DNA of 40,448 nt from an uncultured Legionellales bacterium (GTDB lineage Bacteria > Pseudomonadota > Gammaproteobacteria > Eutrophobiales > Eutrophobiaceae). The notes beneath the pieces are model-generated. The model saw only the letters and a program-made list of their open reading frames with translations. It had not been told where the DNA came from and did not search any database. Made by a program: the position numbers and the translations under genes. Shown in pieces: positions 6,810 through 21,033 of this stretch. The number at the start of each line of letters is the position of its first letter. The stretch's first letter is position 1. The DNA is taken from NCBI GenBank assembly GCA_913041115.1, contig CAJWIE010000001.1, positions 1 to 40,448 of the forward strand. Reading direction: 5' to 3'.

Positions 6810-7772
6810 ATGGAAAAAAACATTAAATATTTTTTAATTAGACTCTCATTCGGCATTCTACTGATATCTGTTGTTTTTGCAGAGCCAGAAACAACTGATT
6901 CAACAACTGATTCCGTTATTCAAGAAGATAGTGCTGCCGCTGAAACAACACCAGAGCCTAAAAACAATGAAACTTCAGAATCTCTAGAAAATGAAAATAC
7001 CGCTCCTGTGGTAAAGGAAAAAACTGTAAATACAGCTGACAATCAGGATTTACCCAATGAAATTGATGCGGAAAAAACTCTTGGGGCTGCTGTTGAGACT
7101 AAAATTGAAGCTCAAAAAGAGGCAGTTAAATCACAAAATACAATTGATCAGTTGACAGATGAAACAAGAGATATGGTGCAAGAATATCGAAATGCTATAC
7201 GAAAAACAGATAGTCTTAGTTCTTATAACCAGCAATTAGCAAAATTAGTAAAACAACAAAAAATTTCCCTAAGTTCTATACAACGACAGCTTGAAAATGC
7301 AGAAGAAACGAAACGTAGTATTGTTCCTTTTATAAATAAAATGATAGGGACTCTTGAAAAATTCGTGCGACTTGATCTGCCATTTCTTCTAGATGAAAGA
7401 CGTCAACGTATCTCTACATTAAAACAAATTGTAAATTTTCCTGATATCACGCTCCCTGATAAATATCGCCGAGTAATGGAAGCTTATCAAATAGAAATTG
7501 AGTACGGGCGAACAATTGAGGCCTATAACGACACTATTACAGTTGATGGTAAGGAATATACTGTTGAAATATTACGTGTGGGACGACTTCTTATGACATT
7601 TCAAACGTCTGACGGAGAACTCAGCGGTATATGGAATAAGCATTCTAAAGCATGGAGAAAATTACCATCAGAATATAATCGTTCAATTAATCAAGGCCTG
7701 TTAATAGCAAAAAAACAAGCTCCACCTGAATTAATTAAGCTACCCGTTACTGCTGCGGGGAAAAAATTATGA
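6810..7772 (+). CDS. DUF3450-type periplasmic coiled-coil protein (TtpB-like, TonB2 system)
   Basis: 320 aa. It has a signal peptide, then an acidic/Thr-rich stretch of about 70 aa, then a coiled-coil and a C-terminal domain. Its stop overlaps the next start (ATGA at 7769-7772). The position ahead of a large MotA/ExbB protein matches the Vibrio TonB2 cluster order. Confidence 0.65.
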   Translation: MEKNIKYFLIRLSFGILLISVVFAEPETTDSTTDSVIQEDSAAAETTPEPKNNETSESLENENTAPVVKEKTVNTADNQDLPNEIDAEKTLGAAVETKIEAQKEAVKSQNTIDQLTDETRDMVQEYRNAIRKTDSLSSYNQQLAKLVKQQKISLSSIQRQLENAEETKRSIVPFINKMIGTLEKFVRLDLPFLLDERRQRISTLKQIVNFPDITLPDKYRRVMEAYQIEIEYGRTIEAYNDTITVDGKEYTVEILRVGRLLMTFQTSDGELSGIWNKHSKAWRKLPSEYNRSINQGLLIAKKQAPPELIKLPVTAAGKKL

Positions 7773-9214
7773 ACAGATTAATGATATTAGTTTTTATTCT
7801 TTTCATATCTTTTTCGTATGCAGAAGAAGCAAGTAATTTGGATGAACTATTAGAACAAGTAAAAAAAGAGCGGACATTACAGAAAGAAGAACTTTTACAA
7901 AGGGAATCGAGATTTAAGAATGCATATAGTAAACAAAAAAAACTATTAGAAGTTGCTGCAAAAAAACTTAAAGAAGAAGAAGATCGAAGCGAATCATTAA
8001 AAGCTACATATGAAAGTTATGATAGTGAGATAAAAAAACAAAAAGATATATTAGATGAAAGAATGGGTACCCTTGGTGAACTGGATGGAATTGTCAAACA
8101 AATAGCAGGTGAACTTGATTCCATAATTGATACATCACTGGTCTCTGCGCAGAAACCTGATAGAGATAAAATACTCGACATATTGTCAACCAGAAAAGAA
8201 CTTCCCTCGTATGAAGATTTGGAAGAGCTCTGGCTATTAGCCATGGACGAAATGGTTGAATCTGGGAAAGTGGTTCGCTTTCCTGGAAAAATAGTAACCG
8301 CCTCAGGAAATGAAATAGAACAAGAGATTACTCGTATTGGAGTTTTCAACGCTATCTCTGCTGGTCGTTTTCTAAGATCGTTGCCAGAATCAGGGATTTT
8401 AATAGAACCAGGCAGGCAGCCGGGGCAGCGTTTCCTTGAAATGGCGAGAGGAATTGAAAATGCAGATTCAGGAATACACCCTTTCCCTGTCGATCCGACT
8501 CGCGGAGCAATGTTAGCATTGCTAGTACAAGTGCCCGATCTTAAAAATCGTATAGAGCAAGGTGGTTTAATTGGATATGCTATTTTAATTATTGGATTTA
8601 TAGGCGTTTTATTGGCTATTGAAAGGCTAGTCAGTTTATTTCTAACAAATCGAAAAGTACAAGAACAACTAGAAAGTAACGAGCCCGGCGATAATCCGCT
8701 TGGCCGTATTATGATTGTTTATAAAAATAATCCTGAAACAGATGCTGAAACTCTCGGGTTGAAACTTGATGAAGCTATCCTAAAGGAAATGCCAAGACTT
8801 CAACGCGGCCTATGGACAATAGCGCTGCTCGCTGCCGTATCACCGCTACTTGGATTACTTGGTACTGTTACTGGTATTATCGAGACATTTCAATCTATCA
8901 CATTGTACGGAACGGGCGACCCTCGTGTTATGTCTGGCGGTATATCACAGGCGCTCGTAACAACAGTTATGGGACTACTAGTTGCTATTCCACTATTGCT
9001 CTTTCATGGGTACCTTTCTTCAAAAAGTAATGGGCTAGTTCAAATTTTAGATGAAAAAAGTATTGCTTACGTTGCATTACTAGCAGATGAAAATCGTAAA
9101 AAAGTTTTTGGTCAATCTCAATTTCAAAATGTTAGAAAGGAAGATAATGCTAAACCAAATACAGTAAATAAAGAGGATAATGAACCGGAATTCTATATAC
9201 CAGAAGATGAATAA
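7769..9214 (+). CDS. Large MotA/TolQ/ExbB-family proton channel protein (TtpC-like)
   Basis: 481 aa. The N-terminal periplasmic coiled-coil is followed by a C-terminal channel domain with LLGLLGTVTGIIETFQSI and GGISQALVTTVMGLLVAIPLL. Confidence 0.8.
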   Translation: MNRLMILVFILFISFSYAEEASNLDELLEQVKKERTLQKEELLQRESRFKNAYSKQKKLLEVAAKKLKEEEDRSESLKATYESYDSEIKKQKDILDERMGTLGELDGIVKQIAGELDSIIDTSLVSAQKPDRDKILDILSTRKELPSYEDLEELWLLAMDEMVESGKVVRFPGKIVTASGNEIEQEITRIGVFNAISAGRFLRSLPESGILIEPGRQPGQRFLEMARGIENADSGIHPFPVDPTRGAMLALLVQVPDLKNRIEQGGLIGYAILIIGFIGVLLAIERLVSLFLTNRKVQEQLESNEPGDNPLGRIMIVYKNNPETDAETLGLKLDEAILKEMPRLQRGLWTIALLAAVSPLLGLLGTVTGIIETFQSITLYGTGDPRVMSGGISQALVTTVMGLLVAIPLLLFHGYLSSKSNGLVQILDEKSIAYVALLADENRKKVFGQSQFQNVRKEDNAKPNTVNKEDNEPEFYIPEDE

Positions 9215-9244
9215 ATCATTTTTTAATTACATTGATGGAAAATA

Positions 9245-9799
9245 ATGATGTTTGATCAGATTGAAATGATGAGAGATTTTTTTACTAAAGGCGGGCCTGT
9301 CTTAGTGAGTATTTTTTTGCTTTCTATAGTTTTATGGATATTGATTCTTGAGCGATATTATTTTCTTTTTAAGGTATGTCCAGGAAAAATTAATCAAATT
9401 GTCAAAGAATGGCAAGAGCGACAAGATCATTCATCTTGGTATGCATTAAAGATTAAAGATGGTCTAGTAAGTGAAGTATCAACCGCATTAAAACAAAATC
9501 TTATACCAATACAAACGTTAACTGGCATACTCCCTTTACTAGGATTATTAGGTACTGTAACTGGAATGATTTCAATATTTGAGGTTTTAAATGTTTTTGG
9601 CACGGGTAATGCTCGTGGAATGGCAGAAGGAATATCGAGAGCTTTGTTGCCAACAACAGCTGGTTTAGCAACATCTATTATTGGAATATATTTTAGTGCC
9701 GATCTAAATAAACGCGCTAAAACGAGAGAAATGATGGCAAAAGATGCATTAACGATTGAAAGAAAAACAAATAAAATTCAAGATCTACTGACTAAATAA
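9245..9799 (+). CDS. exbB: ExbB (MotA/TolQ/ExbB proton channel), short form
   Basis: 184 aa. Motifs are LPLLGLLGTVTGMISIF and GISRALLPTTAGLATSIIG. It is immediately followed by exbD and tonB. Confidence 0.85.
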   Translation: MMFDQIEMMRDFFTKGGPVLVSIFLLSIVLWILILERYYFLFKVCPGKINQIVKEWQERQDHSSWYALKIKDGLVSEVSTALKQNLIPIQTLTGILPLLGLLGTVTGMISIFEVLNVFGTGNARGMAEGISRALLPTTAGLATSIIGIYFSADLNKRAKTREMMAKDALTIERKTNKIQDLLTK

Positions 9800-9804
9800 C
9801 AATC

Positions 9805-10212
9805 ATGAGACAAACACACGCAAAGCAAGAATCAGAAGTTCAAAATATAGACTTAACACCTCTTATTGATACTGTATTTATTTTATTAATATTTTTTCTA
9901 GTTACATCTTCTTTCACGAAAGAATCAGGTATTGATGTTGATAGACCAACTGCGCAAACTGCTGTTAGAGAAGAGCAAGGGAGTATGATTATAGCAGTTA
10001 GTAAAGAAGGAGAGGTTTGGATAGATAACAATAAAATAGAACTTAATGCGGTACGCTCACATGTTGAACGTGCACATGCCCAAAATCCTGAAGGAACAAT
10101 AATAATACTAGCAGATCAGAATTCGAGAACAGGAATCACTGTGGAAGTACTTGATCAAGTTCGTCTAGCTGGAGTTACAAATGTTTCAATAGCGGCTTCT
10201 AATGAAGAATAA
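9805..10212 (+). CDS. exbD: ExbD/TolR biopolymer transport protein
   Basis: 135 aa. The N-terminal helix is DLTPLIDTVFILLIFFLV, carrying the conserved membrane Asp. The periplasmic domain ends ...IIILADQNSRTGITVEVLDQVRLAG. Confidence 0.9.
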   Translation: MRQTHAKQESEVQNIDLTPLIDTVFILLIFFLVTSSFTKESGIDVDRPTAQTAVREEQGSMIIAVSKEGEVWIDNNKIELNAVRSHVERAHAQNPEGTIIILADQNSRTGITVEVLDQVRLAGVTNVSIAASNEE

Positions 10213-10232
10213 AAAATATTTTATTCTCTACT

Positions 10233-10919
10233 ATGAAAATACCCAAGCTAAATATTCTAGAAAATACAAAGATACCTACATTTATTATTGTTGCAATAAT
10301 TTTAAATATTGCCATATTTATTCTTATCCAAAGACTTGTTAATAGAGAGCATGGTTTCGATATCAATCTAATTGATAGAAACTTTCTTGATTTTACACGC
10401 GTTATTGAAAAACCTATCCCGCCTCCAGAAAAAATTGAAGACATTGAGCCACCACCTGAAGAAGAGGATCCGCCACCTCCCGAAATGCCGACACCTGAAA
10501 TCGAAAAACCTCAGCAAATGGATGTTGAATTATCTACACCTGAAATTGATGTGCCAATGTCAATGGCAGGAGAGCCATATTTAGGAGAAATTGGTGATGG
10601 CTCAGGAAACGCAGGTGGATTGGGTCATCCGGGAAAACCTAATATTGATAGTAACGTTGTTCCTTCGCTCAGAATACCTCCAGCTTACCCTAAACGCGCA
10701 CTTCGTAGCGGTATCGAGGGTATTGTAACGGTTGAATTTACAATTACCATAGATGGGTCTGTTAAAGATGCTGAGATTGTAGAAGCAAAGCCGCCCAATA
10801 TCTTTGATAAAGCTGTATTAAGAGCAATTGCAAAATGGAAATTCAATCCTGATATGGTAGACGGTCAACCCGTAGAGAAACGAGCAAGACAAGATATAAA
10901 ATTCACACTAAAAAAATGA
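10233..10919 (+). CDS. tonB: TonB energy transducer
   Basis: 228 aa. It has an N-terminal TM and the Pro/Glu-rich spacer PIPPPEKIEDIEPPPEEEDPPPPEMPTPEIEKP. The C-terminal TonB domain is PAYPKRALRSGIEGIVTVEFTI...DGSVKDAEIV...FDKAVLRAIAKWKFNP. Confidence 0.9.
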   Translation: MKIPKLNILENTKIPTFIIVAIILNIAIFILIQRLVNREHGFDINLIDRNFLDFTRVIEKPIPPPEKIEDIEPPPEEEDPPPPEMPTPEIEKPQQMDVELSTPEIDVPMSMAGEPYLGEIGDGSGNAGGLGHPGKPNIDSNVVPSLRIPPAYPKRALRSGIEGIVTVEFTITIDGSVKDAEIVEAKPPNIFDKAVLRAIAKWKFNPDMVDGQPVEKRARQDIKFTLKK

Positions 10920-12145
10920 TTTTTTTCAAAACAATGAATATGAAGCAAATAATATTAAGTATTTTAATAGTCATTTTTTCATATACAGCAAACGCTAGAG
11001 ATAATTACTCACTACAAACAGGAACATACTCTGTTCTCAATAAAGTTCAAAAAGATATGGATGAGGGTAAGAATGAGGAAGCATTAAAAAAATTAGAAAA
11101 AATTATATCATCAGGAAATATCAAAGATTATGATTCTGCAGTTATTTATCAAACAATTGGTTTTGTGCAAAATAATTTAGGAGATTTCAAAGCAGCTGCG
11201 GAAAATTATACAAAAGCATTATCTTATAAAGTATTACCAGAAGATATTACTCACGGTCTTTACTACACAGTTACTCAATTACTTGTATATTCAGAGAGAT
11301 ATCAAGAAGGAATTGAATATATTCTAAAATGGTTTGCAAAAGAAAAAGAGCCTAAGGCTGAAGCCTATATTCTTGCCGCAACTGCATATTATTATCTTGA
11401 AAATTATAGTGAAGTTATTAATTTTGCTAGCAAAGCTTTGCCTTTAATAAAAACTCCGCCTTTAAATTGGTATGAACTCTTATTGGCTGGGTATTATGAA
11501 ACAGAAGATCTGAATAATGCAGCAATAATTCTTGAAAATATAATCTTCAAATATCCTGCAAGAAAAAAATATTGGATCCAACTTGCTGGCATATACCAAA
11601 GATTAGAAAGAGACGAAAAGGCATTAGCTATTTTTGAGCTAGCTTATGCAAAGGACTTCTTAAAAAAGAAACAGATAATACAACTATGTAAAAATTATCT
11701 TTATTTTGAGATGCCTTATAAAGCAGCAGTAATTTTGGAAAAAGAAATGGCTACTGGAAGAATTGATAGTACTCTTGAAATGTTAAATATGTTAGTAGAT
11801 GCATGGATACTAGCTCAAGAAAGCGAAAAAGCTGAGTCTGTATTTAATGAAATTATTAATTCATATAACGATGAAAAATCTAGACTAAGACTTGGTCAAC
11901 TCCACATTGAAAATGAACAATGGGAAAAAGCAGTTGATGTTCTAAATGTTGAGCTTGAAACAGAAGATATAACCCTACTATCAAAAATAAGCCTCTTACT
12001 AGGCATTGCTCTATTTAACTCAGAAAACATAGCTGAAGCTAGAGAATCATTTACCCAGGCATTATCTGATAAAACAACTGAAGAGCAAGCTAAATGGTGG
12101 CTGGATCATATTAAAAGAAAAAGCGAAGTAACTAAAAATAGCTAA
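10916..12145 (+). CDS. TPR-repeat protein (TtpD-like terminal gene of TonB2 clusters)
   Basis: 409 aa with an ATGA overlap with tonB. The true start may be ATG 10940, giving signal peptide MKQIILSILIVIFSYTANA. There are multiple TPR-like helical repeats (A..Y.KAL...P...). Confidence 0.7.
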   Translation: MIFFKTMNMKQIILSILIVIFSYTANARDNYSLQTGTYSVLNKVQKDMDEGKNEEALKKLEKIISSGNIKDYDSAVIYQTIGFVQNNLGDFKAAAENYTKALSYKVLPEDITHGLYYTVTQLLVYSERYQEGIEYILKWFAKEKEPKAEAYILAATAYYYLENYSEVINFASKALPLIKTPPLNWYELLLAGYYETEDLNNAAIILENIIFKYPARKKYWIQLAGIYQRLERDEKALAIFELAYAKDFLKKKQIIQLCKNYLYFEMPYKAAVILEKEMATGRIDSTLEMLNMLVDAWILAQESEKAESVFNEIINSYNDEKSRLRLGQLHIENEQWEKAVDVLNVELETEDITLLSKISLLLGIALFNSENIAEARESFTQALSDKTTEEQAKWWLDHIKRKSEVTKNS

Positions 12146-12199
12146 ATAGTTATTTTTATATTATCCATAAGACGAAAATACGTCGGAATATTATTTTTA

Positions 12200-13147
12200 A
12201 TGAAATATATATATTTATTAATACTAAATATCTTTGCTATTCCAAATTTTTCATACGCTAATAACGACATTGAAAGCTTATGTAAAAAGTTTCCAATATC
12301 AACTAAGGTGCGTGAAATTCATTCAAATCATGACGATAATATTATATTTAAATCTGGTGTTTTGTGGAAAATTATTACTCCAAACAAAAAGACTAACTAT
12401 CTATTTGGAACAATACACTCGCAAGACTATTCTGTAAGTAAATTTTCTCCTGAAGTTAGATTAACGTTAGTGAAAAGTAAGAAATTAATCTTGGAAATTA
12501 TTCCGAATAATGATGCAAATGTAATCTATAAAAACAAGATGTATTACAAAAACGGGGAACAACTTAATAATCTTATAGAAAAACCTCTTTTTCAAAAACT
12601 TACAGAACAAATAAAATATTATGATTTAAGCGAAGGTGAATTAAATAATCTTAAGTATATGAAACCGTGGGCAGCATTTAATTTAATTGGAAGACCTAAA
12701 CCTGTTCGAGCTCCAACGCTTGAAAGTAATTTACTAAAATTAGCGCAAGAAAGAATGCTAGAAATAGATTCACTCGAAACTATGGATGAAATAATATCAT
12801 CTCTAGATGAATTATCTATACATGATCAACTTAATATACTAAAAGATACAATATGTAATCGTAAATATATAATTGAAGAAACAAAAACATTAATTGGTTT
12901 ATATATTAAGCGTAATGCTTTAGAGATTGTTAAATTTAGTAAAAAAAAACATGCTAATGAATCAATATATAATCAGTTTATGGAAAAAATGCTACACGAT
13001 AGAAATAAAAAGATGATAAAAAAAATATCCAATGAATTTGAAGAAGGAGATGTGTTCGTTGCCGTTGGTATTTTACATCTTATTGCCAAGCGTGGGATAT
13101 TAGAAAAACTTCAAAATCTAGGTTATGCTATTGAGACAATCTATTAA
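12200..13147 (+). CDS. TraB/GumN family protein
   Basis: 315 aa with a signal-like N-terminus. The family-typical motif is LWKIITPNKKTNYLFGTIHSQD, and the C-terminal part is VAVGILHL...GIL..L...GY. Confidence 0.7.
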   Translation: MKYIYLLILNIFAIPNFSYANNDIESLCKKFPISTKVREIHSNHDDNIIFKSGVLWKIITPNKKTNYLFGTIHSQDYSVSKFSPEVRLTLVKSKKLILEIIPNNDANVIYKNKMYYKNGEQLNNLIEKPLFQKLTEQIKYYDLSEGELNNLKYMKPWAAFNLIGRPKPVRAPTLESNLLKLAQERMLEIDSLETMDEIISSLDELSIHDQLNILKDTICNRKYIIEETKTLIGLYIKRNALEIVKFSKKKHANESIYNQFMEKMLHDRNKKMIKKISNEFEEGDVFVAVGILHLIAKRGILEKLQNLGYAIETIY

Positions 13148-13454: not shown

Positions 13455-14852
13455 TTACAAATTATATTTCTTGATTCGATAACGCAAGGCCATCCGTGTA
13501 ATTCCAAGTTCTCTTGCTGCCTTTGATACATTGCGATTTGTGCGTTCTAAAGCTGATTTAATTAATTGTAATTCTGCCTCACCCAATGTTATATCATGAT
13601 TAATTTCTACTTCATTATTAATTTTTTCATTTTTATCTATATTAAGAATATTAATATCGATAACCCCTCCTCCACTTAGTAAAACAGCACGCTCAATAAG
13701 GTGCTTTAATTCTCTAACGTTTCCATGCCATGAATATTCTTTAAGTTGCTTAAGTGCTTCTTTTGAAAATCCCTCAAATAATAATCCATAACGTTTTGAT
13801 GTTAAACTAGCACAGTAATTTGCTAATAATAAAATATCTTTATCCCTATCTCGCAAGGATGGCATAGTAAGTGTTATGACATTTAATCGATAATATAAAT
13901 CAGAACGAAATTCTCCTCTTTTCACTAATGACTCAATATCCCTATTTGTTGCAGCTATTATCCATGCAGCAACTGGAAGTTCTTTTGTTGAACCCAGTCT
14001 TCTTAATGATCTGCGCTCTAATACTGCTAAAAGCTTTGATTGTAAATCAATTGGTATTTCAGCAATTTCATCTAAAAATAAAACACCCTCTTCAGCAGCT
14101 TCAATTAAACCTGCTCGAGCAACATTTGCATTTGTAAATGCTCCTTTTTCATGGCCAAATAATTCTGACTCTATCAAATCTTTCGGTAAAGATGCGCAAT
14201 CAACGTGGACAAAAGGTCTTGTGTTTAAGCCGCTTTTCGCATGTAGTAAACGAGCAACCACATCCTTGCCCGTCCCAGTTTCACCAAGAATTAGTACCGT
14301 CGGTGGAACACCCGATTCAGACTGGGTGAGAGATGATATCTTCTCGACTTGCTCCCGTATAAAATTGATTTGTCTGCATTCTCCAAGAAATTTAACTTCT
14401 TCGAAAGCATGTTGTTCGCGTTTTGCTGAATAGCTTAATTTTTGCGTAAGTTCATTTTTATCAATTACTTTTTTAACATTTACATATAACTCTTCCAGGT
14501 CAATGGGTTTCTTTAGATAATCAGAAGCACCTAATTTCATTGCAGATACTGCGTCTTCAAGTTCTCCATATGCAGACATTACTAGTACTTCAGTATTCGT
14601 ATTTTTAGATTTTATTTCATTTAATAAATCAAGTCCCGAACCATCCGGCAATCGCATATCTAACAAAATAAGATCAGGAATATTTTCTTTTAAATACAGT
14701 CTTGCAGATTTTAAATCAGATGCTAAGTTAATATCATATCCTTTACGTAACAAATGTTTTTTCACTGCATTTCCAAAAACAGTTTCATCTTCGACTAAAA
14801 GAATTTGTTTTTTTAGAATAGGTATTTCAGTAGACATTGAGTCATGCATCAT
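13455..14852 (-). CDS. Sigma-54-dependent (NtrC-family) response regulator
   Basis: 465 aa. The receiver has ILLVEDE...LILLDMRLPDGSG. The AAA+ domain has Walker A GETGTGKD, ESELFGHEKGAFTNA (a variant of GAFTGA), FLDEI and FRSDLYYRLNV. The Fis-type HTH is VSKAARELGITRMALRYRIKKY. Its start overlaps the kinase stop (ATGA at 14849-14852). Confidence 0.95.
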   Translation of the reverse strand: MMHDSMSTEIPILKKQILLVEDETVFGNAVKKHLLRKGYDINLASDLKSARLYLKENIPDLILLDMRLPDGSGLDLLNEIKSKNTNTEVLVMSAYGELEDAVSAMKLGASDYLKKPIDLEELYVNVKKVIDKNELTQKLSYSAKREQHAFEEVKFLGECRQINFIREQVEKISSLTQSESGVPPTVLILGETGTGKDVVARLLHAKSGLNTRPFVHVDCASLPKDLIESELFGHEKGAFTNANVARAGLIEAAEEGVLFLDEIAEIPIDLQSKLLAVLERRSLRRLGSTKELPVAAWIIAATNRDIESLVKRGEFRSDLYYRLNVITLTMPSLRDRDKDILLLANYCASLTSKRYGLLFEGFSKEALKQLKEYSWHGNVRELKHLIERAVLLSGGGVIDINILNIDKNEKINNEVEINHDITLGEAELQLIKSALERTNRNVSKAARELGITRMALRYRIKKYNL

Positions 14853-16318
14853 GAAAATCCCTTACCTAAATTAATCGGGGCTTTAATAATTACTTCGGTC
14901 CCTTTTCCTGATTTTGTTTTAAAATCAAGTTGCCAATTATGTTTTTGGCATATCTTGAAGGCTATAGGTATTCCTAAGCCCGTACCATAACGTTTTGTTG
15001 ACGGTCCCGGCTCAAGATTTCCAGGTTTTGGCTCAAAAAGTAGCCCAGAACCGCTATCTTGAATTCGAATCTCAAGTGTATCTTTATTATTTATTATATT
15101 AATTTTTAGAATACTTGATTCCGAACTCGCATCAATTGCATTTGCTAATAAACTATATATTGCCTGCTCCATCAAATCTGGATCAACATTTAATAAAACT
15201 GAATCTTCCCAACCATTTTTTACTAGCTTTATTCTTTTTTCTTTTATTTTGTTATCAAGCACTTCTAATACTGCATCAACTAGTCGTGATGCATCAACAT
15301 TAATTAAATTTGGCTCTAAAGGGTGCAAGTACGAAACTAATGAGCTAACCCATCGACCTAAACGATCTATCGTATCTATTATGGCCTGTTTTGATTCATT
15401 AATTTCTTTTTTATTATCAGCGTGTTCAAGTAATTGTGCGCTCGCCCTAATGCTTGCTAATGGATTGCGTATGTTATGGGCAACAACTGGAATTAGTGAG
15501 CCCAATGCAACTTGCCTTTCATTTTCTAAAAGTGCTTCTCTATTACGTGATAGTTCATCAGCCATTTTATTAATCGTATTAGCTAATTCTGATACTTCTT
15601 CAACACCCTCTTCTTTTATTTGGTAATTTAATTTGCCGTGACTTATTTTACCTGCGCCTTCCATAACATTAGCAATTGGCGCAATGAATTGTATTCTCAT
15701 AATATGACGAGTATAAAAAACAATAATAAACGCAATAATAAGGGGTATAGGTATAATAAATGGTGCAAATTTTGTCCAGATTTCAAGTGTTTTATCTAAT
15801 TCTTCATGGTTACCTCTTAATAATGATTTGAATGAATGGTATCGATTTTCGAATTTCCCTACCATTTGCTGAGCAAAGGTTGGATTAAGAATCTGAATTT
15901 TTGATAAACGATCGGCAATATACGGGTTACTGAAAATATTATTCATATCAACCTGGATTTCTCTGTAAGAAAGATTCAGTTCCTGAATTGCTTGATCCTC
16001 TTTACGTGAATTCGACTTTCTTCTAAGTTCGTTAAATAATTCAGAAATACTACGTGAATATTCAGGATATGTTTCTAGCGCATGAGCATCTTCTAGTATT
16101 CGTGCGCGAATCATTTCTTGAATCTGTGCATAAAGCTCGCCTCGTATCTGTTCAGTAAGATAAAACATTGCATTTATACGGACTGATTCTGCCGAATTCT
16201 GCTGCCAAAAAAATGCTGAGACCCCACCAATCAGACCCATAGCAGCAACTAGAAATAAAATTGCAATTTCATGACGAAATATAAGATTATTTAAAGACTT
16301 AGGTGAAAAAAATGACAT
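14849..16318 (-). CDS. Sensor histidine kinase (two TM, HAMP, HisKA, HATPase_c) partnered with the NtrC-family regulator
   Basis: 489 aa. The H-box is VAHNIRNPLASIRASAQLL. The N/G boxes are LLANAIDAS...QDSGSGL...GTGLGIPIAFKI. Confidence 0.9.
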   Translation of the reverse strand: MSFFSPKSLNNLIFRHEIAILFLVAAMGLIGGVSAFFWQQNSAESVRINAMFYLTEQIRGELYAQIQEMIRARILEDAHALETYPEYSRSISELFNELRRKSNSRKEDQAIQELNLSYREIQVDMNNIFSNPYIADRLSKIQILNPTFAQQMVGKFENRYHSFKSLLRGNHEELDKTLEIWTKFAPFIIPIPLIIAFIIVFYTRHIMRIQFIAPIANVMEGAGKISHGKLNYQIKEEGVEEVSELANTINKMADELSRNREALLENERQVALGSLIPVVAHNIRNPLASIRASAQLLEHADNKKEINESKQAIIDTIDRLGRWVSSLVSYLHPLEPNLINVDASRLVDAVLEVLDNKIKEKRIKLVKNGWEDSVLLNVDPDLMEQAIYSLLANAIDASSESSILKINIINNKDTLEIRIQDSGSGLLFEPKPGNLEPGPSTKRYGTGLGIPIAFKICQKHNWQLDFKTKSGKGTEVIIKAPINLGKGFS

Positions 16319-16655: not shown

Positions 16656-16689
16656 AAAAAAAGGAGTCTTTTGACTCCTTTTTTATTTT
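16656..16689. terminator. Bidirectional rho-independent terminator between pqqA (+) and cytochrome b561 (-)
   Basis: A7 run, GGAGTC (16663-16668), loop TTTT, GACTCC (16673-16678), then TTTTTTATTTT. The A-tract/T-tract symmetry allows termination in both directions. Confidence 0.65.
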
Positions 16690-17313: not shown

Positions 17314-17874
17314 ATGTCTAAAAATCTAATAATATTTTGTATTCTTACTATCATTATAGTTATGCCTCTACCAATAAGTGCTGAGGATTACCAGATTATA
17401 GTTTCCAAAAGCAATAAAGAACTTGCATTAAAAAAATCAAATAATATTGTAAAAAAATATCATATCGCTACTGGTAAAGGCGGACAAGGAACTAAAAGAA
17501 AACGTGGCGATAGTAAAACACCATTAGGTGTCTATCGAATTTCTAAACTTAGTAAAAGTAAGCGCTTTTATTATTTTATACAACTTGATTACCCAAATTT
17601 AATCGACGCATGGTATGGTTTTAAAAATGAAGTTATTAATGGTGGTGATTTTAAACGTATTGCAAGTGCATATAAAAAGCGTGAATTTCCGCCACAAGAT
17701 ACAAATTTAGGAGGACAGATAGGAATTCATGGCATTGGTAATACAACAAAAAAGAAATTAGCAATTCATAAAGAACTTAACTGGACCGATGGGTGTATCG
17801 CTTTAACAAATGATGATATAAGTGATCTTATAAAATTTATTAAAATTGGAACAACTGTAGTAATTAAAGAATAA
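17314..17874 (+). CDS. L,D-transpeptidase-fold protein, YafK-like (YkuD domain)
   Basis: 186 aa with signal peptide ...PLPISA-ED. GDSKTPLGVYRI...LDYPN resembles the YafK family. The catalytic motif is IGIHG...NWTDGCIALTNDDISDL (His/Cys of YkuD domains). Confidence 0.75.
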   Translation: MSKNLIIFCILTIIIVMPLPISAEDYQIIVSKSNKELALKKSNNIVKKYHIATGKGGQGTKRKRGDSKTPLGVYRISKLSKSKRFYYFIQLDYPNLIDAWYGFKNEVINGGDFKRIASAYKKREFPPQDTNLGGQIGIHGIGNTTKKKLAIHKELNWTDGCIALTNDDISDLIKFIKIGTTVVIKE

Positions 17875-17886
17875 TAAACTCATATC

Positions 17887-18438
17887 ATGGAAAACAACAT
17901 AAAGGTAAAATATCAACGTGGTGCATTAACAAATTATTTGTATGGGTACTGTGTATTGAGTACGTTTATTTTTATATTAATAATTTTTGATATTATTACA
18001 TATAAAACATATGATGATATTTATAAGAAATTTTCAGAGAAAGATTATATTGATATTATTCAAGATGCAGAATTTGCTATTACTGAAAATAATTTTCGTA
18101 TTGTAAACCGTATAAATATTGGAGAAGCCATTCAAGAAAGGAAGGGTGTAATATTTCCAAGAAATGAAGTGATATTATTTTGTAATTTAACCACCGCTGA
18201 AGAAATGTTGAAGCTTGAACCCGATTTCATTAGTTTCTGCCCATATAAAATAACTATTTCAGAAAGATTAGGAAGGTCGGATCTTGAAGAAAAAATTATG
18301 ATTTCGACACGTCTTTTACCAACAGATACAGAATCAACCGATATAAATAATCTTTCAGTTAATATGAATGAAATTTTACGTAAAATAGTGGAATATGCTG
18401 TATTAGAAGACCCTTTTGTCATTAATCTTGATAAATAA
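17887..18438 (+). CDS. Membrane-anchored DUF302 domain protein
   Basis: 183 aa with one N-terminal TM (YLYGYCVLSTFIFILIIFDIITY). The C-terminal part FPRNEVILFCNLTTAEEMLKLEPDFISFCPYKITISE parallels the DUF302 core (F-R-P-Y-x-IL-G-A-C-N-P-x-x-A...P-C-N-V-V-V) as I remember it. Confidence 0.5.
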   Translation: MENNIKVKYQRGALTNYLYGYCVLSTFIFILIIFDIITYKTYDDIYKKFSEKDYIDIIQDAEFAITENNFRIVNRINIGEAIQERKGVIFPRNEVILFCNLTTAEEMLKLEPDFISFCPYKITISERLGRSDLEEKIMISTRLLPTDTESTDINNLSVNMNEILRKIVEYAVLEDPFVINLDK

Positions 18439-18453
18439 ATATATACATCATTT

Positions 18454-19197
18454 ATGAAGATACAACCAGAACATAATCTACTACTCAAATGGTTAATTTT
18501 AACTGGTCTTATTGGCTTTTCAGCAATAGTCGCCTGGAATGAAGGGGTTATTTCGTCACTGTACAGTGTCGATAAAAGTCATATTTCTATGGCAATAACA
18601 TTAATTTATCTTCTAGTTACCCTACATTGTGCTCAAAGAATATATACAATTTCAACAGAAACTAATTTATCGAAAAGAATAGAAGATATTATAAAAAATG
18701 AAAAAAAAATAATTCTAAATATTAATGACGATCAAGTTTTAATAAATTCAAAAATAAAATTGCCTGAGTGTCTAATGACTGAATATATAAAAGATCTATG
18801 CTTTCGTAATAATAATATTTCTGTACCTAATGATAATGGTTTAACCTCAGATCTAAATGATGTCTATAATTCAAGATTAAAAGGTCCCCAAGAAATTGGT
18901 TGGTTTGTCTCAGATATGATGTTAAAGCTAGGTCTGTTAGGAACAATTATTGGATTTATTTTTATGCTCGGATCTGTTGCCAACATTGCGGATTTTGATG
19001 TCAGTAATATGCAAAAAATATTACGGCATATGAGTAATGGAATGGGCACTGCTCTTTACACAACATTGACAGGTTTAGTGTGTAGTGTTTTATCGGCGAT
19101 GCAGTATCATATGATAGACAGACATGCTGATGAATTAATAGAGTTAACCAGCCATACGACACAAATTCATCTCGTACCAAAAATAAACACTAACTAA
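18454..19197 (+). CDS. MotA/TolQ/ExbB-family proton channel protein (third paralogue in window; 4 predicted TM, MotA-like topology)
   Basis: 247 aa. It has two N-terminal TM helices, a loop of about 85 aa, then KLGLLGTIIGFIFMLG and NGMGTALYTTLTGLVCSVLSAM, the two signature helices of the family. Confidence 0.75.
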   Translation: MKIQPEHNLLLKWLILTGLIGFSAIVAWNEGVISSLYSVDKSHISMAITLIYLLVTLHCAQRIYTISTETNLSKRIEDIIKNEKKIILNINDDQVLINSKIKLPECLMTEYIKDLCFRNNNISVPNDNGLTSDLNDVYNSRLKGPQEIGWFVSDMMLKLGLLGTIIGFIFMLGSVANIADFDVSNMQKILRHMSNGMGTALYTTLTGLVCSVLSAMQYHMIDRHADELIELTSHTTQIHLVPKINTN

Positions 19198-19201
19198 TAT
19201 A

Positions 19202-19795
19202 ATGCGCGTCAAAGATCGATTTCGTTCTGATCCTTTTACTGATTTATTATTTAACGCCCTTCTCGGCTTTACTTTCCTATTTCTTGTTGCAATTATGTTT
19301 ATGAATCCCGAGGCAAAATCAGGTATTATTGATCCAAAAGCAGAGTACATACTTACAATAACTTGGGAAGATAATAATCCTGATGATATTGATGTGTGGG
19401 TCGAAGATCCTGAAGGACAACTCGTTTATTTTCGAGCAACAGAGGCTGGACTTCTGCATCTCGATCGTGATGATCGTGGGTTAGTAAATGACACAATAAC
19501 AATTGATGGCAAGGAAGTACAAAACCCATTAAATCAGGAGGTTGTAACATTACGTGGTGTTGTAAAAGGAGAATATGTTGTCAATCTTCATTATTATGCC
19601 TCAGAAACAAACAAACCAGTTGATGTTAATGTGCGGCTTGCAAAAGTTAATCCAAAATTAGAGATTATGTACTACGGAAAAGTTAATCTTGAGAAAAAAG
19701 GTGACGAAAAAACAGCGTTTCGTTTTAGTATCATACGAAACGGTAAAGTTTCAGGTATTAATTTTCTTCCTAAACAACTCGTTATCGTAAATTAG
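19202..19795 (+). CDS. Single-pass membrane protein with ExbD/TolR-like Asp-bearing N-terminal helix and an unassigned beta-rich C-terminal domain
   Basis: 197 aa, starting 4 nt after the MotA-like gene. The helix is DPFTDLLFNALLGFTFLFLVAIMFM (Asp14 = 19241-19243), comparable to ExbD PLIDTVFILLIFFLV in this window. The remainder (ILTITWEDNNPDDIDVWVEDPEGQLVYF...) has no ExbD/TolR/MotB/OmpA motif that I can see. Confidence 0.55.
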   Translation: MRVKDRFRSDPFTDLLFNALLGFTFLFLVAIMFMNPEAKSGIIDPKAEYILTITWEDNNPDDIDVWVEDPEGQLVYFRATEAGLLHLDRDDRGLVNDTITIDGKEVQNPLNQEVVTLRGVVKGEYVVNLHYYASETNKPVDVNVRLAKVNPKLEIMYYGKVNLEKKGDEKTAFRFSIIRNGKVSGINFLPKQLVIVN

Positions 19796-19809
19796 ATAGA
19801 GAGAATATT

Positions 19810-20322
19810 ATGACACTAGGCATAACAGGTATTATCTCAGCCTATATATTACTTGCGTTATTACTCCTAAGTATTAATCTTTATTCAAAATGGTCGTGGC
19901 ATATAAAAGCTGCGACTATTATCCTAACATCTGTTTTTTATATCGTAACTTATTATTCATTACCAGCATTACTAGGATGGCCAACTTCTCAAAACCCACC
20001 CGCACAATTTAGATTACTCGCTGCGCATGTCGAACAACCTGATAAAGAAAAAAATACAAAAGGGGCTATTTATCTCTGGTTATCGAAAATTATTAATTTA
20101 ACAGAATTAACCGAACCAAGGGCCTATGAGTTTGATTACTCAATTGAACTTCATGAAAAAATTATTAACGTAAATGCTAAATTGAATAAAAATATTAAAC
20201 AAATTGGTGAATTTAAAGATCCTGATAATGCATTCAATGAAATAAACGAACAAAAACGTGGTGTTAAATCTGTAAAAATTGAATTCTATGATTTGCCAGA
20301 TCCACTATTTCCAGATAAATAA
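19810..20322 (+). CDS. Hypothetical 2-TM membrane protein, last gene of the five-gene operon
   Basis: 170 aa with TM helices ITGIISAYILLALLLLSINLY and AATIILTSVFYIVTYYSLPALLGW, followed by a charged soluble domain. A GAGAG SD-like sequence lies upstream. No family recognised. Confidence 0.55.
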   Translation: MTLGITGIISAYILLALLLLSINLYSKWSWHIKAATIILTSVFYIVTYYSLPALLGWPTSQNPPAQFRLLAAHVEQPDKEKNTKGAIYLWLSKIINLTELTEPRAYEFDYSIELHEKIINVNAKLNKNIKQIGEFKDPDNAFNEINEQKRGVKSVKIEFYDLPDPLFPDK

Positions 20323-20334
20323 ATTACCAACTAT

Positions 20335-21033
20335 TTAATATAGAACTTTTGACATTCTTACGTATTTTTCAATAAGTTCAATCATTTCGATTTCAGATAA
20401 TTTTGATTTGCTATTATCAAACCAATGTTTTTCATTTTCGATAATCTTGCTGGCAATAATTTTACTATTAATATTGCCTTTATCATCTCTACAAATGCCT
20501 GGTGAATTTATTAATAAGGATATGGCGGCACCTAATACAATCTCATTTTCTGATTTATATATTCCATCTTGTGAGATTCCATGATTAATAGTATTACTAT
20601 CATAATTATTAGTTCTTAATGATTGAGTTATAAAAGTCATTAACGTATTAAATTCATCAGGAATATTAATTCTACTAATTGTTGCCCAATGATATAGATC
20701 TACTGGTTTTACTTCCCATTCATTTTCTGGTTTATTAATATTTAAGACTTCTAATAGATTCTTCCTCACACATTCGTTTGCATGTTCTTTTAGGTTATTA
20801 ATTCTCTCAACTAGATCCTTATCTAAAATATTTTTTTTAGATGGATTAATAGACAATAATAATAATATTCCTTCGCTATGTAATAACCATTTTTCTTTTT
20901 TACACCATTTTTCATATAGTTTTTGCTTATTAATTTTTTCTTCATCATATATTTCGTTTGGTACAGTGTTCCTTTGTATCTTATTATTCTTATTAAAAAT
21001 GAATATAGATAACTTATTGATAATATTAATCAT
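20335..21033 (-). CDS. Hypothetical protein, no recognisable family; 12 nt downstream of tilS
   Basis: 232-aa ORF with an ATG start. It is very AT-rich (Asn/Lys/Ile-rich) and has no TM or signal peptide. It is the only long ORF covering this interval. Confidence 0.55.
   Translation of the reverse strand: MINIINKLSIFIFNKNNKIQRNTVPNEIYDEEKINKQKLYEKWCKKEKWLLHSEGILLLLSINPSKKNILDKDLVERINNLKEHANECVRKNLLEVLNINKPENEWEVKPVDLYHWATISRINIPDEFNTLMTFITQSLRTNNYDSNTINHGISQDGIYKSENEIVLGAAISLLINSPGICRDDKGNINSKIIASKIIENEKHWFDNSKSKLSEIEMIELIEKYVRMSKVLY

Follow-up and report, generated by a model that had tools for sequence, protein, structure and literature searches.

What does a run of five closely spaced genes encode when the middle one specifies a channel subunit of the MotA/TolQ/ExbB family and none of the usual partners of such a channel is encoded with it? 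The question is raised by positions 17,314–20,322 of a 40,448-nucleotide stretch of DNA from an uncultured Legionellales bacterium (contig CAJWIE010000001.1; the whole stretch is referred to as the window). The original prediction, made from the letters of the window, treated all five open reading frames (ORFs) as one envelope operon built around a non-canonical stator pair. Much of its description agrees with our searches. The five ORFs lie on the plus strand, separated by gaps of 12, 15, 4 and 14 nt, the motifs quoted for them (IGIHG...DGCIAL, LGLLGTIIGF and GMGTALYTTLTGLV) are found in the translations, and all five products are predicted envelope proteins. Genes 1–3 score above the Pfam gathering thresholds of YkuD (PF03734), DUF302 (PF03625) and MotA_ExbB (PF01618), respectively, and Pfam and NCBIfam searches of the five genes return no TonB_C, TolA/TolB/Pal, OmpA-like or flagellar domain. 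The products of genes 4 and 5 match no family in Pfam, NCBIfam or PADLOC.

The answer given here is that a trio, genes 3–5, forms the conserved unit in place of the quintet; the products of these three genes are called subunits A, B and C. We consider it somewhat probable, by analogy with characterised motors, that A-B-C is a self-contained, ion-driven envelope motor of the 5:2 type, forming a previously undescribed subclass with a periplasmic output. The proposal of a divergent MotA/ExbB-type protein paired with an Asp-helix partner other than ExbD is thereby retained, while three features had been overlooked: C belongs to the core, a vWA-TM-FHA gene (TM, transmembrane) has been lost next to it, and the cassette is spread among phages.

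The conserved unit is a trio of genes

Each gene of the window was scored in 80 genome loci, ranging from 93 % to 61 % identity, among at least 599 matching stretches. The three genes of the trio are nearly always present (Table 1), and the cases in which A or C is missing are located at contig ends. The order A-B-C is found in 78 of the 80 genome loci and, from iterated profile searches with all fetched loci included, equally in 78 of 80 viral loci. C follows directly after B in 79 of the genome loci and in every viral locus. The B gene starts 4 nt past the stop codon of A in the window, and in most loci the two genes touch or overlap. The trio is also present in Azospirillum brasilense Sp7, and in some bacteria it stands alone amid unrelated metabolic genes. 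Only genes 3–5 are thus co-conserved across genome and viral loci, and the original view of the five genes as one system is not supported.

Median identities were computed across 37 genomes (Table 1). B is more conserved than AccA. Because the ORFs are conserved in related genomes and B is under stronger constraint than AccA, the five ORFs are real genes and not chance reading frames.

Subunit A is a divergent member of the MotA/TolQ/ExbB family

The MotA_ExbB match of A is confined to residues 159–230 (E = 3e-9, 37.2 bits against a cut-off of 22.9), and PF01618 also matches the A proteins of phages and other bacteria. When the A family profile is compared with the PDB, TolQ (6.6e-5), MotA (3.8e-4) and ExbB (9.8e-4) are found at about equal distance. 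Four TM helices are predicted from hydropathy and the alignment, at approximately residues 9–27, 43–61, 152–178 and 196–216. In the clade of the window, a cytoplasmic insert of about 70 residues lies within residues ~75–150. This insert is missing from the phage versions, which are only 113–175 aa long and have no cytoplasmic loop; the median length of A is 173 aa in viruses versus 248 aa in bacteria.

Across 82 bacterial and 66 viral sequences, nine residues of A reach at least 90 % conservation in each of the two groups, namely W13, D40, G160, G163, T164, G167, T204, G207 and Q217. Two of them, T164 and T204, do not vary at all in alignment A5. In the profile alignment, T164 falls on T145 of TolQ, T204 on T178 and T199 on E173, and the stretch from T164 to T204 is the candidate channel-lining region listed in Table 1. 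A Thr-Thr doublet, T203 and T204 (19,060–19,065), accompanies T164 in A, and Asn18 of B lies one turn beyond its Asp14. This arrangement may resemble the Na+ site of PomAB, which would suit marine hosts.

Subunit B joins an Asp helix to a new periplasmic domain

B is a predicted single-pass protein with a cytoplasmic N-terminus and a helix at residues 11–33. As originally proposed, the helix opens with an aspartate, Asp14, three residues into it. The acidic residue of ExbD, TolR and MotB holds the same position near the start of the helix. Asp14 and Asn18, the putative ion-binding residues, are invariant in alignment A4, and both are at least 90 % conserved in the bacterial and in the viral set.

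The structure of B was modelled with AlphaFold2. The single-sequence model was unusable, with a predicted local distance difference test (pLDDT) score of 46, and the alignment-based model (pLDDT 82) is the one described here. In this model the helix 11–33 is followed by a linker of about 14 residues and by a twelve-strand beta-sandwich at residues 49–187 (pLDDT 80–93). The conserved residues of the sandwich are W55, D62, D64, D69-P70, D88-R89-D90-D91, D97 and E113, and among them D62, D64, D69, D88, D90, D91, D97 and E113 form an invariant acidic cluster. Weak sequence matches connect the sandwich with PPC, DUF2135 and the C-terminal domain of subtilisin, and a function as a Ca2+-binding module of the PPC/DUF2135 kind is probable.

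Further weak matches, made by the DDxDxWVxDPxG part of the sandwich, lead to phages. They comprise phrog_1735, a family of unknown function, a PDB entry named 'virion structural protein' (11pb_C, E = 0.095) and, as the only kind of protein returned from BFVD, uncharacterized large phage proteins, e.g. from Campylobacter phage CP21 (E = 3e-5). Virion proteins of phages may contain the same domain.

Homology of B to ExbD was considered and rejected, as Pfam, NCBIfam, hhalign, PDB profile and fold searches were all negative. The window protein does not match PF02472, and only 2 of 39 relatives touch this family (E about 0.005). No similarity to the window's own ExbD is detected by hhalign. Neither the full-length profile of B nor a helix-only profile retrieves ExbD, TolR or MotB from the PDB, and a Foldseek search of the PDB with the model gives a best E of 0.011 and a template modelling score of at most 0.43, again with no ExbD, TolR or MotB. 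The periplasmic part of the 197-aa protein had been described as apparently unrelated to these three proteins, and the profile and fold searches agree. B constitutes a new family, more conserved than AccA, with 1781 clusters at 50 % identity, nearly all of about 200 aa and matching end to end, and more than 7250 clusters at 90 % identity, without exception annotated 'hypothetical' and lacking a Pfam domain.

Subunit C is a two-helix protein in the tolA/tonB position

Two TM helices are predicted in C, at residues ~4–22 and 37–55, as had been proposed for gene 5. The loop between them is basic, so both ends of C are predicted to be periplasmic. The periplasmic domain has about 115 residues with the motifs GWP, PRAY and, at the C-terminus, YDLPDPLFPDK; G56 and R104 are invariant. 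C has no relative in Pfam, NCBIfam, PADLOC, PHROGs or, searched with the family profile, the PDB, and it is always annotated as 'hypothetical'. In gene order it occupies the position that tolA or tonB has after tolQR or exbBD. In one genome, gene C is duplicated in tandem (L040, 2943–4012).

Copies in phage genomes

Distant homologues of B are located on contigs with genes for a terminase, an ERCC4 nuclease, a sigma factor, a primase and a methylase. Among isolated phages, tblastn finds full-length B homologues in 25 Rhizobium phage records, of a ~150-kb and a ~68-kb type. In these phages a minimal MotA_ExbB gene (113–147 aa) overlaps B on its upstream side and a gene of ~150 aa lies downstream. 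In the minimal set of Rhizobium phage RHph_N3_19 (EVB99_065–067), the three products have 113, 194 and 154 aa. A scan of IMG/VR gives 288 viral contigs with relatives, and from the viral loci 80 were examined for the order A-B-C and 70 for neighbouring genes. The recurrent neighbours are the large terminase, DNA primase, head maturation protease, PhoH, HNH endonuclease and a sigma factor, and no fourth constant gene stands beside the trio among the viral loci. A PHROG search with A, B and C finds nothing besides the weak phrog_1735 match of B.

Envelope-glycan genes are frequent behind the viral trio. In 16 of the 70 loci the trio is followed by a gene of the nucleotide-sugar epimerase or GDP-mannose-dehydratase type, in one viral locus by a Glyco_transf_9 gene, and in one phage by a ClpP-like protease and a phage lysozyme. 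Such envelope-glycan or protease/lysozyme followers are found at L095 6151–7158, L172 7156–9001, L083 7232–8227 and L171 7199–8258.

Within the window clade identity is at least 52 %, and no sampled viral copy exceeds 50 % identity to its members. Recent transfer from phage to host was rejected on the basis of this separation, which argues for vertical inheritance in the lineage of the window. Plasmid-borne mobility was likewise rejected, as the matches of this kind are only on Azospirillum chromids.

Table 1. Features of the cassette locus, with gene occurrence in the 80 genome loci and median identity across 37 genomes
Feature	Position	Strand	Basis	Genome loci	Median identity
Gene 1, YkuD-fold protein, 186 aa	17314–17874	+	ORF list, Pfam	62/80	53.2 %
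Gene 2, DUF302 protein, 183 aa	17887–18438	+	ORF list, Pfam	47/80	40.7 %
Gene 3, subunit A, MotA/TolQ/ExbB-family channel, 247 aa	18454–19197	+	ORF list, Pfam	79/80	50.0 %
Candidate channel-lining region of A, Thr164 (18943–18945, LGLLGT) to Thr204 (19063–19065, ALYTTLTG)	18943–19065	+	codons verified		
Gene 4, subunit B, 197 aa	19202–19795	+	ORF list; without Pfam domain	80/80	75.5 %
Putative ion-binding site of B, Asp14 (19241–19243) to Asn18 (19253–19255)	19241–19255	+	codons verified		
Predicted periplasmic beta-sandwich of B	19346–19762	+	AlphaFold2 model, weak profile matches		
Gene 5, subunit C, 170 aa	19810–20322	+	ORF list; without Pfam domain	79/80	55.9 %
Histidine kinase (flank)				51/80	
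Response regulator (flank)				47/80	
tilS (flank)				41/80	37.5 %
accA (AccA)					68.3 %

Proposed mechanism and alternative explanations

We suggest that the cassette probably turns ion flow into periplasmic work, in the following way. A would form the channel ring, in which the last two of its four predicted TM helices carry a ring of threonines. The helices of B would form the central axle, and it is there, within the ring of A, that Asp14, together with Asn18, would bind the coupling ion and let it go. The sandwich of B would sit just above the membrane on its short linker. Ion flow would then move B relative to A, and work would be done via the sandwich and C, the hairpin of C serving as a peripheral adaptor or coupling subunit. 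The output cannot be cytoplasmic, because the minimal phage A has almost no cytoplasmic domain. Domain content, conserved residues, gene linkage, distribution and the lack of ExbD homology are shown, whereas we infer the assembly, its stoichiometry, ion coupling and topology, as well as the Ca2+ binding of the sandwich and the role of C.

Several points speak against such a motor. B has no detectable similarity to ExbD, TolR or MotB, neither as a whole protein nor in the helix alone, and because homology is undetectable the role of B as an axle is proposed from analogy and from the linkage of the genes. An SHLS-type motif is missing from C, which is not similar to TonB or TolA either, and gene order is what its role as an adaptor was guessed from. 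The trio has no consistently linked outer-membrane or peptidoglycan partner in the sampled loci. Finally, an aspartate in a helix beside a MotA-like protein could serve a channel that does no mechanical work. A fuller version of the motor proposal is more tentative and falls a little short of being probable. According to it, the cassette is a new, autonomous class of ion-driven 5:2-type motor with an axle unrelated in sequence to ExbD, TolR or MotB that bears a Ca2+-binding sandwich and with a dedicated two-helix coupling subunit; it would serve a highly constrained core function in bacteria, and its miniaturised copies in many phages, the cultured Rhizobium phages included, would energise or remodel the host envelope during infection.

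Could all five genes nevertheless be one system, with the YkuD-fold enzyme under the drive or control of the motor and the DUF302 protein as a further subunit? The shared strand, the short gaps and the five predicted envelope products are in its favour. So is the lack of any visible terminator-like site inside the run, although promoter and terminator scans are uninformative in this AT-rich DNA, and YkuD lies directly upstream of the trio in 62 of the 80 loci, including one with a rearranged flank (L035). However, both genes are gone from distant bacterial loci (L056, L066, L068–L079), from the stand-alone bacterial trios and from all phage copies. DUF302 is missing from 33 of the 80 loci and is only 41 % conserved, YkuD adjoins gene 3 directly in many loci, and the two genes are retained about as often as the unrelated kinase, regulator and tilS genes in the flanks (Table 1). 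Other lineages attach a vWA-TM-FHA gene or a DUF3108-like lipoprotein instead. One five-gene system is therefore unlikely in our view, and YkuD and DUF302 are probably co-transcribed, lineage-specific add-ons that lie outside the machine. A link to peptidoglycan or Lpp tethering, which the original prediction drew from gene 1, is at most such an add-on, since YkuD is absent in distant lineages and in phages. It is similarly improbable that A-B-C is a gated ion channel or a sensor of the proton-motive force and not a force generator, acting on membrane potential or lysis timing in phages and as an envelope-stress valve in bacteria, with the B sandwich as a gate for Ca2+ or another ligand. The near absence of a cytoplasmic domain in the minimal phage A would fit a channel, as would the very short linker of the B model, which limits the periplasmic reach, the lack of a consistently linked outer-membrane or cell-wall partner, and the trio that lies beside a phage lysozyme. 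Yet every characterised member of the MotA/ExbB/TolQ superfamily, as far as we know, couples ion flow to mechanical work (review PMC9389320), and the conserved third subunit with its periplasmic domain, together with the extreme conservation of the B ectodomain, suggests protein-protein work over simple gating.

The phage copies bring up the idea of a minimal, Zorya-like module for anti-phage defence or superinfection exclusion, carried by phages and domesticated by bacteria. The cassette is compact and autonomous, its relatives are found in the IMG/VR contigs and the cultured Rhizobium phages, and A has weak matches to the ZorA models of PADLOC (best E 6.5e-6). These matches span only residues ~150–234 of A, within profiles of 420–700 positions, and weak matches to the TolQ/ExbB core are obtained as well, i.e. 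what is shared is the MotA_ExbB core. There is no ZorA tail, no ZorB-type domain and no ZorC/D-like effector, and B and C match no PADLOC model. Defence genes are typically patchy and fast-evolving, whereas this cassette holds a fixed position beside core housekeeping genes across genomes of 61–93 % identity, its window clade stands apart from the viral copies, and B evolves more slowly than AccA. The identity as a defence system was rejected on genomic context and conservation, and we regard any version of it as quite doubtful. The least probable explanation by far is an ordinary spare ExbBD or TolQR paralogue that serves a TonB or TolA encoded elsewhere in the genome. It agrees with the membership of A in PF01618, with the TonB2-type cluster in the window and with the several ExbBD sets that genomes often carry, but it is largely refuted by a B without ExbD domain or fold, an A equally distant from TolQ, MotA and ExbB, a dedicated third subunit that is always present and the occurrence of the cassette in phages.

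Relation to known systems

The proposed motor resembles the Tol and Ton systems in its gene order, i.e. a channel, an Asp-helix subunit and then a membrane-anchored periplasmic protein, in the PF01618 domain and the two channel threonines of A (T145 and T178 in TolQ), and presumably in a periplasmic output. Among the differences, the very short linker of B carries an acidic beta-sandwich in place of an ExbD/TolR domain or fold, C is a two-TM protein that lacks both TonB_C and TolA domains, and the TM helices predicted in A number four instead of three. The cassette is also found in phages, and neither TolB/Pal nor a TonB-dependent receptor is linked to it. By Pfam, genes 1–5 contain neither TonB_C nor an ExbD domain, and TolA, TolB, Pal and CpoB are not found among the scanned neighbours in the window and in a sample of the related loci.

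With MotAB and PomAB the cassette shares the predicted four-TM topology of A, the threonine-rich last helix (ALYTTLTG) and an aspartate near the cytoplasmic end of the B helix. However, B lacks both a plug motif and a peptidoglycan-binding domain of the OmpA-like type, the phage A proteins are without the large cytoplasmic torque-generating domain, and the third subunit C is obligatory. The window contains no flagellar genes. The 'MotA' named in a paper on marine methylophages is the T4 transcription factor.

GldLM/PorLM is a 5:2-type motor in which the inner subunit has beta-rich periplasmic domains and no peptidoglycan-binding domain. B would be analogous in this respect, with a beta-rich periplasmic part in place of a peptidoglycan-binding domain. 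In contrast to A, GldL is not a member of PF01618 and has two TM helices; GldM has multiple domains and spans the periplasm, and no genes of the type IX secretion system are linked to the cassette. Zorya ZorAB is likewise a non-flagellar MotA/ExbB-type pair tied to phage biology, and A has the weak ZorA matches described above, but the cassette lacks the ZorA tail, the peptidoglycan-binding domain of ZorB and ZorC/D. It also differs in its core-genome location, its apparently vertical inheritance and its very high conservation.

The nearest published idea is that of TolQ-like genes without a recognisable tolR or exbD, which are paired with 'transpore helix' vWA proteins, and of vWA TonB-like transducers (Mol Biol Evol 2025, PMC12204202). 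As in the cassette, a TolQ-like gene has there an Asp-helix partner with a non-canonical periplasmic domain, and a vWA neighbour recurs in 45 of the 80 cassette relatives. However, B is a predicted beta-sandwich with no VWA match, and the vWA gene of the relatives encodes a signal peptide, vWA, a TM helix and FHA, and is absent from the window. That study reports neither a two-TM third subunit nor phage copies (PMC12204202). A 2025 classification of MotAB relatives contains uncharacterised 'generic ion transporters' with DUF appendages and does not describe the cassette (PMC12505986). The searched literature holds no account of A-B-C, consistent with the original remark that the five-gene combination was not recognised as a described system.

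If the fuller motor proposal is true, the phage copies would be the first virus-encoded motors of the superfamily, as far as the searched literature shows. Motors of the MotA/ExbB/TolQ type are, to our knowledge, the only route by which Gram-negative bacteria turn ion gradients of the inner membrane into work in the periplasm or at the outer membrane, and each new class, be it Ton, Tol, the flagellar stators, the gliding/T9SS motors (T9SS, type IX secretion system) or Zorya, opened a field. The cassette has only three genes, is very widespread and contains in B a protein under stronger constraint than an essential enzyme, yet it is wholly unannotated. B would mean that the principle of the Asp helix is compatible with a periplasmic module of an entirely different kind. 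The hundreds of phage genomes with the cassette would imply that phages bring their own ion-driven envelope machine, a new form of host manipulation. The miniature phage versions, with their A of 113–175 aa, would be attractive minimal models for structural and single-molecule work, and cultured sources exist in Azospirillum brasilense Sp7, Methylohalomonas lacus HMT 1 and the Rhizobium phages P10VF, RL38J1 and the RHph series.

Accessory genes

Gene 1 has a clear YkuD domain (PF03734, E = 1e-22), a signal peptide ending ...ISA/ED and the catalytic-motif residues His139 (IHG) and Cys161 (DGC). Its description as a YafK-like L,D-transpeptidase-fold protein is correct for the fold and the motif. 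At the family level, the match to the LdtF/DpaA/YafK model of NCBIfam is only partial (42 bits against a cut-off of 365), and gene 1 does not encode an equivalog of that model. Gene 2 encodes a TM-anchored protein with DUF302 (PF03625, E = 8.5e-8, 32.4 bits against a cut-off of 23).

The accessory genes on the other side of the trio also vary. In the loci with the vWA gene, it lies right after gene 5 and encodes 490 aa, with a signal peptide, vWA, a TM helix and a cytoplasmic FHA domain (e.g. L003, 7152–8624). It has been cleanly lost in the window and in its nearest relative, L001, and in the window the stop codons of gene 5 and of the convergent gene that follows are just 12 nt apart (20,322–20,335). 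In the distant clade L068–L079 (e.g. L069, 7124–7822), the trio is followed by the DUF3108-like lipoprotein of about 235 aa, which is marked by a lipobox Cys and by the conserved motif EWYAPGVGLVK and is also recorded in L044 (106–1041); the 40-kb window contains no copy of this gene. Because the accessory genes (YkuD, the DUF3108-like lipoprotein, the periplasmic vWA protein) differ by lineage, their choice suggests that lineages plug different periplasmic clients into one engine. Two or three tandem DUF3108-like paralogues are seen in L072 and L073. One metagenome-assembled genome (CAXXLL01) carries two cassettes (L054 and L066); every accessory gene accompanies one of them, and the other is the bare trio.

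Other genes of the window

The window also contains a TonB2-type cluster at 6810–12,145, with DUF3450 (TtpB-like), a 481-aa MotA_ExbB protein (TtpC-like), ExbB, ExbD, TonB and a TPR protein (TtpD-like). The genuine ExbB, ExbD and TonB genes are at 9245–10,919, which places ExbB and ExbD about 9 kb upstream of gene 3. Since this set is complete, genes 3 and 4 are not the ExbBD of that system. A complete, separate TonB2 cluster had been reported 7 kb upstream of the five genes; the cluster exists, at a distance of 5.2 kb from gene 1. A gene of the TraB/PrgY/GumN family comes after it, and the region that includes this gene spans 6810–13,147.

On the minus strand, at 13,455–16,318, follow an NtrC-type sigma54 activator and a HAMP/HisKA kinase, both of them conserved neighbours (Table 1). 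Control of the cassette by this adjoining two-component pair was considered and rejected. No -24/-12 match precedes gene 1, a regulatory link is accordingly not evident, and across the window such matches are at chance level (17 observed versus 14.4 expected). Between the kinase-regulator pair and gene 1, at 16,657–16,684, a hairpin with a 12-bp stem between A and T runs resembles a bidirectional terminator.

The downstream flank consists of core housekeeping genes in the order tilS-accA-dnaE-lpxB-lpxA-fabZ-lpxD-bamA-rseP. The convergent gene between gene 5 and tilS (20,335–21,033, minus strand) encodes a conserved hypothetical protein of 232 aa with no Pfam domain, and in 25 related loci it sits in the same place, between tilS and the trio or the vWA gene.

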